From assembly GCF_001677475.2 (NCBI RefSeq), contig NZ_CP012498.1: 64,000 nucleotides of DNA. One strand, 5' to 3'. Made by a program: the position numbers. This document shows, piece by piece, positions 27,001 through 30,000 of the stretch; the first letter of the stretch is position 1, and each line of letters begins with the position of its first letter. Source of the stretch: Escherichia coli (GTDB lineage: Bacteria; Pseudomonadota; Gammaproteobacteria; Enterobacterales; Enterobacteriaceae).

Positions 27001-30000
27001 GTCGCATGTTCGTAGCAAAATGACAGGGATTACAAAAACCTGGTGTGATCCGAATATCGGCGTGTCCCTGATTACATCCGGGGTTAAGGAACAGATGGCT
27101 GTACATGCTAATACAAGAGTGAGCTCATTCCAGGCTGACAATATCATTGTGCACCGTAATGAACCTGACTACCTTTCCCGTCGCATTTATAATGCTGAAC
27201 AGCGTGAGTCTATCATTAATGTTATCAATGAACGGCAGAAGTTGCTTATTAAACGAGTTAATGATGTCATCAGCCGTTTCACCGACTATACACATGTAAT
27301 GTGTGTTGGTGGTGGGGCTGAAATTGTGGCCGAGGCTGTGAAGAACCTGACTAGGGTTCCTGATAAGCGCTTTTATCTGAGCTCATCCCCGCAGTTTGAT
27401 TTAGTCATGGGAATGATAAAAATGAAAGGTGGTGTGATTAATGAGTGATGAAAATAAATCCAGACGCTGCTCATTTGAACTTTTCCCGGATGAACGGACA
27501 GGAGATAAGATAGCAGATGAGCTCATTGCAAATGAAAAACTGAAGGAGCGAGGACGTTTCATGCGCGCGATGTTAGTTACTGGTGCGGCGTTTGCAGCTA
27601 TAGATAAACGTCTTCCTTTGCTGATATCGGAGTTACTGACAGAAAATACGACTCTGGATGATATTAATAAGGTGATTTCCAGCGTAATACCAGGTGCTTT
27701 TTCGGTTGAAAAGAAATTGCTTGAATTACTGGAAAAACAATCTGGTCTCCATACGTCTGTGGATTGTAGTGCTCCTCTTACAGAGCAGAGCCTGGCGAGA
27801 AATGACGGTGAAGACCAGACCAGAAGAAACGCTGAAAATATGTTCGGAGATGACTGAACTAACCCAGCCTGGCCAGGGGAATATCTCGCCATTTAGTTGT
27901 ATAACACTGACTCAACATTTCCCGTTTCATTTGCCATTCAGGGGCGGTTCCTCGCCCCGCAAACCACACTTTCCCTTTTCCCGACTGGTTCAGTTCATCG
28001 AGTGTTTTCATTAACTTTTCACTGTTTTTACGGGGCTGGATTTCATCAAATAATCCCGGCTGCGCTATACCCGATGGTGTGAAATCAGCCAGCATGACTC
28101 CTGCCTTCATATAGCGGTACCCTTCACGCCAGACATGGTTTAACGCTCTGCATGCTGCGGCAATAATGTCCCGGCTGTCCTGTGTGGGGAATGGAAGCTT
28201 TTCCACAGCGGCATTGCTGTAACAGGGGGCTTTCACTGCAAAGGGTGACGTTCATATAAATGTCGCCACCTGCCGGCAATACTGACGCTCCCCACGTAGT
28301 TTCTCTGCGGCCCGCTCTGCATACTGAACAACAGCCTGGTGCATGGCATCTTTGTCTGTGATTCGTTCACCAAAACTGCGACTACAGACAATCTGCTGTT
28401 TTGCCGGTGGTGCTTCTTCCAGGGATATGCAGGACTCGCCGTTGAGTTCGCGTACCGTACGCTCAAGAATGACGCTGAAGTTTTTCCGGATGAATGCCGT
28501 GTTCGCCTGCGCCAGCTGCAGTGCTGTGTTAATACCCAGCGCATTCAGCTTTTCCGTCAGTCTGCGTCCTGTTCCCCAGACCTCACCAACTGGCTGCAGC
28601 CCCAGTAGCTTCAAGATCCGATTACGGTTTTCTGTTGTCAGCGCGACCACACCGGAAAACTGCGGCCATTGCTTTGTTGCCCACTGTGCACTTTTAGCCA
28701 GCGTTTTTGTAGGCGCAATGCCCACCCCCATGGTGAGTGTTCCCTGAGCTGATGACCAAAAACCTCCGGAGAGATGCAATGATTTATCCCCCGCAAATCA
28801 ATGAATCGCCCCGGTTTTCCTGGAGAATGTTTTATCTGTGCACACGGATACTGGGTGTAAAAGAGTTCGGGTGTGATAACCCGGACTGTCATCACGTAAA
28901 GTACCTGACCTGCTCATGCGGCAGCCGTGCCTGCCCGTCCTGCGGAAAGACGGCAACAGACCTGATCTTACCCAGCAATAGTGGACACGCAGCTAAGTGA
29001 GTAAACTTTCAGTCAGAGGTGACTCACATGACAAAAACAGTATCAACCAGCAAAAAAACACGTAAACAGCATTCGCCTGAATTTCGCAGTGAAGCCCTGA
29101 AGTATTCAGGTCACTTACAGTACCACTCACTCTCATGTATACATATATATGAAATTACAATTTCAATGATATATATCATAAAAACCTATGTCAGATTAAG
29201 TTATAATCTTACTCTAAAGTTCAGAAATAAACATGGAAAACATACAGATAAATATGGAAAATATATTTAAGTTTTCTCAAACTGAATTCATAAAGTCTCA
29301 ACATACAGACAGAAGCATATATAATGGATTATGTTTTTTTATGTGTATTGATTATATATATAACAAATTAAACGACATAAAGTGTGATTTCATTTTTTTT
29401 AGCAAGACATATGCATTTTCCTCAAGATACAGAGGAATGTTACTTGCATATGAAAGCGGAACCATTAAAGACCCATACTTAATAAAAAACGGAAAGATAC
29501 ACCTAAAAAAATAAAAGGGGATGTAAATCCTGTTGAACTCTATAATATAAAGGATGATTCTTATATTATTAATTTATCTCTTTCAAATGGTACAATGTCA
29601 CATACTACAGCATTTATAAAAAATGGTCGGCATTCTTTATTCTTTGATCCAAATTTTGGTGAATATCTTGTAGGAAATAAGATGGAGCTTATAAACTTTT
29701 TAAAACAGAAATATAAAGGTTATTATAATTTAGATAATATATCACTATATTCGGCTAAATCCATTGATGGACGGAGAATACTGAACAGTAACTGTTGACG
29801 GCAATCACATAGTTTCAGCTTGGCTGACGTCGATATTCCCTTGGTGGAGCCTGTACATAGATTTGTGTAATTGCCTGATTTTGATATGTTCAATCCAGCA
29901 TCAAATGAAGGTTAATTTATGGACGAAAAACAGTTACAGGCTCTGGCTAACGAACTGGCCAAAAACCTCAAAACCCCTGAAGACCTCAGTCAGTTTGATC

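Follow-up and report, generated by a model that had tools for sequence, protein, structure and literature searches.

What is left of a polymerase gene that has been overrun by mobile elements, and which of those elements cut it? The question is raised by a 64,000-nucleotide stretch of Escherichia coli contig NZ_CP012498.1 (assembly GCF_001677475.2), part of a large virulence-type plasmid and hereafter the window, in which umuC-type sequence lies next to the plasmid partition gene parR. A sequence-only reading had described this sequence as a minus-strand gene beginning at 27859, frameshifted, truncated at its 5′ end by an IS3 copy at 28963, and lacking a umuD partner. Our alignments indicate that the segment from 27859 to 28805 is almost certainly a dead remnant of impB, the gene for the UmuC-type catalytic subunit encoded by the plasmid SOS-mutagenesis operon impCAB, and that the element that cut it was not IS3. 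The operon that follows parR in intact relatives is impCAB, in which impC is dinI-like, impA is umuD-like, and impB is umuC-like.

Base-by-base alignment of the remnant with the intact umuC of plasmid p417H-90 gave 97% DNA identity, extending from the TAG stop codon (27859–27861, minus strand) to window position 28805, which corresponds to nucleotide 310 of the coding sequence (CDS). In a tblastn comparison, residues 133–424 of the conceptual protein shared ~97% identity with their intact plasmid counterpart. Two open reading frame (ORF) pieces matched the NCBIfam UmuC profile NF002955 (profile positions 131–292, E 6e-87, and 300–422, E 8e-62); the whole-protein cut-off of this profile is 431 bits, and both pieces score under it, being partial. 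Pfam matches to IMS_C, IMS_HHH, and DUF4113 were also found. When PLSDB was searched with megablast, 27400–28805 was ~97% identical to thousands of IncF and IncI plasmids, and the gene after parR in those plasmids is annotated as ‘Y-family DNA polymerase’ or ‘umuC’. The umuC-type assignment made from the raw sequence is thus borne out.

The gene is nevertheless far from complete. Homology begins at codon 104, codons 1–103 are missing, and a tblastn search with UmuC residues 1–103 returned no match anywhere in the 64-kb window. The catalytic carboxylates of UmuC are Asp6, Asp101, and Glu102, and all three were therefore lost with these codons; the N-terminal palm and fingers region with its catalytic acidic residues is absent from the remnant. 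No start codon is left and no uninterrupted frame of ~424 codons exists. Alignment to an intact umuC had been set as the test of the truncation claim, and no intact polymerase gene emerged from it.

Two further lesions lie inside the part that survives. Residues 104–126 were found by tblastn in frame −3 (28805–28737) and residues 133–424 in frame −2 (28737–27862), in agreement with the earlier description of UmuC-like segments in two frames. The shift is explained by a single 19-bp deletion, which is the sole frameshift in the remnant, the rest of the alignment being free of insertions and deletions. Inspection of the alignment around the deletion revealed no direct repeats that would account for it; the microhomology is 1 bp only, and the spacing of the CCTGT repeats nearby is 16 bp rather than 19. 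The frameshift part of the earlier description did not hold where the two large ORFs are separated: 28252–28779 and 27859–28236 share one frame and are split by a nonsense change of CGA to TGA, which appears as an asterisk at 28252–28254 in the conceptual translation. In base-by-base alignments, the window has A at position 28254 and three close relatives (L008, L009, and L002) have G. The 19-bp deletion and all of the element junctions are common to the window and these relatives; the TGA codon is private to the window.

The partners of the polymerase are gone as well. Where the operon is intact, the umuD gene runs into the beginning of umuC, but tblastn and blastn searches, which also covered relocated copies, found nothing credible for a UmuD-like (impA) or DinI-like (impC) protein in the 64-kb window. 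The best UmuD matches had E values of 0.025 and 0.06, and both fell inside IS3-family transposase genes. On this point the sequence-only reading was correct. A perfect LexA box, CTGTATATATATACAG, precedes the DinI-like gene impC in p417H-90; no CTGT-N8-ACAG site occurs within ~10 kb of the remnant, the window's only such sites being at 17693, 48478, and 49659. A consensus promoter scan found no minus-strand promoter-like site between the remnant and 29166, the nearest being 29194–29166, and the number of promoter-like sites in the region (5 versus 2.7 ± 1.6 expected) was within chance. Of the features that mark a umuDC or impCAB SOS operon, neither an adjacent umuD/impA nor a LexA box is present.

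The breakpoint itself was the claim that changed most. Homology to umuC stops at 28805, 158 bp to the left of the IS3 end that had been named as the truncating element, and what abuts the polymerase sequence is the end of a different IS3-family element. From 28802 onward the window reads TGAATCGCCCCGGTTTTCCTGGAGAATGTTTTATCTGTG, which is identical at 37 of 39 positions to the terminal inverted repeat of an IS3-family element near espP in pTA131 (L006), a pO157-type plasmid in which the sequence adjoining the matching end is annotated as IS3 family transposase. This 39-bp end is also similar to sequence in L007 and is unique within the window; it matches known IS3-family copies with TGAAYCGCCCCGG ends. 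The element may be IS629-like. A text search of the literature showed that TGAACCGCCCCGG-type ends are also printed in papers on the IS3-family member IS6110; these papers confirm the IS3-family type of the end and not a specific element. The bases TGAA (28802–28805) fit impB and the element end equally, and the junction therefore lies between 28801 and 28805.

Next to the 39-bp end is an internal piece of an IS91-family transposase gene, joined to it with 1 bp of overlap. The piece codes for part of the zinc-binding domain (Pfam Zn_Tnp_IS91, E 1.5e-8) and is 96% identical in DNA to the transposase gene of pSA20104250.1 (L005, 2501–2625) and 78% to IS1294. No complete IS91-family element, with a full ~400-codon transposase and both ends, is present here. 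The IS3 left end follows, starting with TGATCTTACCC; its left inverted repeat (IRL) motif occurs nowhere else in the window. This stub is 96–98% identical to complete IS3 copies (L004, 6363–6502; L002, 681–821) and stops after GAAGCCCTGAAG, where an intact IS3 continues with CTTGCTGAACGC and the window with TATTCAGGTCAC. A complete IS3 has both inverted repeats and orfA-orfB and is longer than 1.2 kb (in L004 the left end is at 6363 and the transposase CDS ends at 7590), so the estimate of about 140 bp made for the window's copy proved accurate. Judged by these alignments, at least three mobile-element remnants, not one, are stacked at the impB breakpoint, which supports the earlier proposal of successive insertion and deletion at one site.

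Table 1. Coordinates of the impB remnant, its lesions, and the adjoining features (window positions).
Feature	Position	Strand	Remarks
impB/umuC pseudogene remnant (almost certain assignment)	27859–28805	−	Y-family DNA polymerase, Pol V catalytic-subunit family; codons 104–424 of 424
In-frame TGA for CGA (Arg294)	28252–28254	−	Plus-strand G to A at 28254; from alignment to intact reference
19-bp deletion site	28737–28738		CDS nucleotides 378–396, codons 126–132; single 19-base gap versus intact gene, frame shifted
Terminal inverted repeat of IS3-family element, TGAAYCGCCCCGG type	28802–28840	+	39 bp; actual truncator of impB
IS91-family transposase gene, internal fragment	28841–28962	+	122 bp, about nucleotides 131–253 of a 1200-nucleotide gene; both ends absent
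IS3 left end	28963–29102	+	140 bp; IRL and first 25 codons of orfA (ATG 29028)
Low-GC (23–30%) segment joined to IS3 stub	29103–29900	+	From GC profile
YopT-type (Peptidase_C58) cysteine protease-domain gene	29233–29798	+	Frameshifted in window
parR/stbB partition gene	27441–27857	+	Pfam Plasmid_stab_B, E 7.6e-28; converges on impB 3′ end

These data bear on the proposal that IS3 itself inserted into umuC, with the cut at 28963 and the whole of 27859–28966 derived from umuC. The IS3 left end does start at 28963, and a minus-strand ORF (28895–28638) spans the junction. That ORF, however, has no UmuC similarity beyond 28805, where umuC identity stops, and the intervening DNA is accounted for by the IS3-family terminal repeat and by an IS91-family gene that lies on the opposite strand at 96% identity. 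The alignments had already refuted this proposal, and we consider it extremely improbable. We give just as little credence to the idea that errors of sequencing or assembly produced the disruptions and that the gene on the real plasmid is usable. The G-to-A change at 28254 was seen only in the window, so the TGA could be an error, but the truncation, the 19-bp deletion, and every element junction are identical in three independently assembled sister plasmids, and 16 complete E. coli genomes carry the composite scar. Were the TGA set aside, the gene would still lack its first 103 codons, its start codon, its promoter, and its partner.

A different possibility is the expression of a C-terminal fragment whose action needs no polymerase activity. 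The 125-residue ORF at 27859–28236 is open with a GTG start and keeps the little-finger/DUF4113 region, with DUF4113 and the end of IMS_C. Its QPGLF sequence aligns to residues 357–361 of K-12 UmuC, QLNLF, which is the β-clamp motif of UmuC, and the remnant has persisted in the plasmid lineage. Such a C-terminal part of ImpB, transcribed from the adjacent low-GC DNA, might conceivably be a polymerase-dead competitor for the β clamp or for UmuD′/RecA, and if so it would damp Pol V mutagenesis of the host. Against this, the LexA-box promoter is gone, and the nearest minus-strand promoter-like site is the one at 29194–29166, in a set of sites whose number is within chance. The GTG-initiated ORF owes its existence to the private nonsense mutation and hence offers no account of retention in relatives, for which tight linkage to parMR is the simpler explanation. 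Both the general idea of an active fragment and its specific form as a competitor seem to us highly unlikely. We infer instead that the locus has no polymerase function and is neutral debris beside selected partition genes; linkage to parMR is the most likely reason for the survival of the remnant.

No evidence contradicting the pseudogene interpretation turned up in the analysis; some of its details are less firm. The ratio of nonsynonymous to synonymous polymorphism (pN/pS) was 0.35–0.40 for the remnant versus 0.16–0.17 between intact genes, values that derive from only 15–21 changes, and relaxed constraint is not yet visible. This substitution pattern would fit a recent inactivation; so few changes carry no weight in either direction. 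A sequencing error could account for the private TGA, and the verdict would then stay the same. The order of the rearrangements that we propose is deduced only from the way in which the pieces appear to be nested, and structural intermediates (such as a complete insertion sequence (IS) in impB at the same site) were not found in PLSDB, where only 7 plasmids carry the full scar.

In the history that we propose, impB would first have been interrupted near codon 104 by an IS3-family element with TGAAYCGCCCCGG-type ends. The next event, a deletion or an illegitimate recombination using 1 bp of microhomology, may have removed all but 39 bp of this element, together with the impB 5′ end, impA, impC, and the promoter, and would have joined the residual 39 bp to internal sequence of an IS91-family transposase gene. 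IS3 would subsequently have inserted into the IS91-family gene, and it would have been cut to 140 bp on joining low-GC DNA with a YopT-like gene. The 19-bp deletion probably occurred at some point in an ancestor shared by the whole plasmid lineage, and the TGA would have arisen later, in the window's own lineage. Plasmid p199 (L004, NZ_MK181559.1), an unrelated IncI-gamma/K1 plasmid, was of separate interest: over 4460–6502 it shows six alignment gaps, it has no annotated polymerase gene after parR, and it carries a complete IS3 inserted ~560 bp deeper in the operon than the point at which the window's copy breaks off. This pattern suggests that in a second lineage impCAB has decayed independently through IS3.

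The surroundings of the remnant on its parR side are those of a conserved plasmid backbone. The parM gene, on the plus strand, ends at 27448 and is followed by parR. In p417H-90, parR is followed, on the opposite strand, by an intact umuC (1275 bp, 424 residues), umuD, and a DinI-like gene, and in R64 the order is int-parA-parM-parR-polymerase-umuD-DinI-like. Over 24102–28805 the window and R64 are collinear, with 96.7% DNA identity, and the position 3′ of parM-parR that is characteristic of the IncI/IncF backbone is retained up to the breakpoint. Short pieces at 52654–52892 and 63816–64000 are 90–97% identical to the leading region that normally comes after impCAB in p417H-90. The backbone therefore resumes ~24–35 kb away from what is left of impB, and the interval consists of IS-rich and accessory DNA.

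The closest functional counterpart is the impCAB operon of IncI1 plasmids of the R64/TP110 type, also present in many IncF plasmids, which has the same int-parA-parM-parR arrangement and convergent Y-family polymerase gene; the p417H-90 protein is identical to that of R64 at 418 of 424 positions. By comparison, the window keeps only impB codons 104–424, broken by the 19-bp deletion and the stop codon, and has lost impA, impC, and the LexA box. K-12 umuDC encodes DNA polymerase V; its UmuC shares 58% identity across 420 residues with the intact plasmid homologue, for which NF002955 gives a score of 787 bits. The window gene, unlike umuDC, is a non-functional plasmid paralogue without a UmuD partner. 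Other plasmid-borne umuD-umuC-type pairs are samAB of the Salmonella virulence plasmid, mucAB, and rumAB. The homologue on a 93-kb plasmid of Salmonella Typhimurium, which we take to be samB, is ~71% identical to the intact protein, and the window gene belongs with the impB allele group (at least 95% identical in ~1,880 plasmid records), not with samB or mucB, besides being a pseudogene. The sister plasmids (p1RM9088, pCFSAN004181P, and others) share with the window, at 99.2–99.4% identity, the coordinates relative to parR, the truncation point, the 19-bp deletion, and the IS91 and IS3 scraps; the window adds the TGA at 28252–28254 and a 1-bp deletion in the YopT-like gene.

The intact gene is by far the more common form. 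At least 80% of the intact protein was covered in at least 4,884 of the best 5,000 plasmid records, and umuD was annotated alongside in nearly all records listed, so that an intact and paired gene is the normal state. The composite scar was found in 16 of 5,426 complete E. coli genomes and in 7 PLSDB plasmids; the plasmids that bear it are all 167–242 kb in size and mostly of cattle or food origin. The umuC pseudogene is real, ordinary, and already recorded in public annotation: on the sister plasmids, RefSeq records from the Prokaryotic Genome Annotation Pipeline (PGAP) label the equivalent interval ‘umuC, frameshifted; incomplete; missing N-terminus’ and the equivalent IS91 piece ‘transposase zinc-binding domain-containing protein, incomplete’.

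As a non-functional pseudogene, the remnant is of little significance overall. It does mean that this plasmid lineage has lost its own error-prone polymerase, and therefore SOS mutagenesis in its hosts must rely on chromosomal umuDC. In transposon work on I-complex plasmids, impCAB was located in the leading region and its overexpression was toxic (PMC10286972), and its loss would therefore plausibly be neutral or mildly beneficial. The nested scars (IS3-family end, IS91 fragment, and IS3 end) are convenient for marking the lineage of a limited set of large E. coli plasmids. They also hold a lesson for annotation, as the nearest recognizable insertion sequence need not be the truncating element.

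The region 3′ of parMR has served as a dumping ground for insertion sequences well beyond the impB breakpoint. The guanine-plus-cytosine (GC) content falls from ~0.50 to 0.23–0.30 from ~29100, where AT-rich DNA had been noted before, and the low GC content around the YopT-like gene suggests a foreign origin. The YopT-like homologue is intact in the sister plasmids (188 residues, matching Pfam PF03543); in the window the A-tract at 29505–29511 is one A shorter, leaving ORFs at 29233–29514 and 29595–29798. Further along, 29919–30260 (plus strand) encodes an N-terminal fragment (113 residues) of a Mutator/IS256-family transposase, annotated in relatives as ‘transposase, missing C-terminus’. A complete-looking IS3-family element of 1,229 bp occupies 30435–31663 (plus strand), with orfA at 30492–30776, orfB at 30833–31645, terminal repeats TGAATCGCCACGG, and a flanking 3-bp direct repeat, GGT. 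The 2.2 kb from 30247 to 32428 stands where the sister plasmids have only 275 bp, which points to further rearrangement here. Another IS3-family left-end remnant, beginning TGAACCGCCCCAGGAATCCTGGAGAC, lies at 31731–31800 (plus strand) and is followed by minus-strand IS3-family transposase genes (31964–33332). The whole of 28802–33400 is a stack of IS fragments. Near-identical IS3-family transposase copies at 32460–33332 (minus strand) and 38571–39818 (plus strand), inverted and ~6 kb apart, surfaced as spurious weak UmuD matches, and a CopG/RelE-ParE toxin-antitoxin pair (37106–37665) lies between them.
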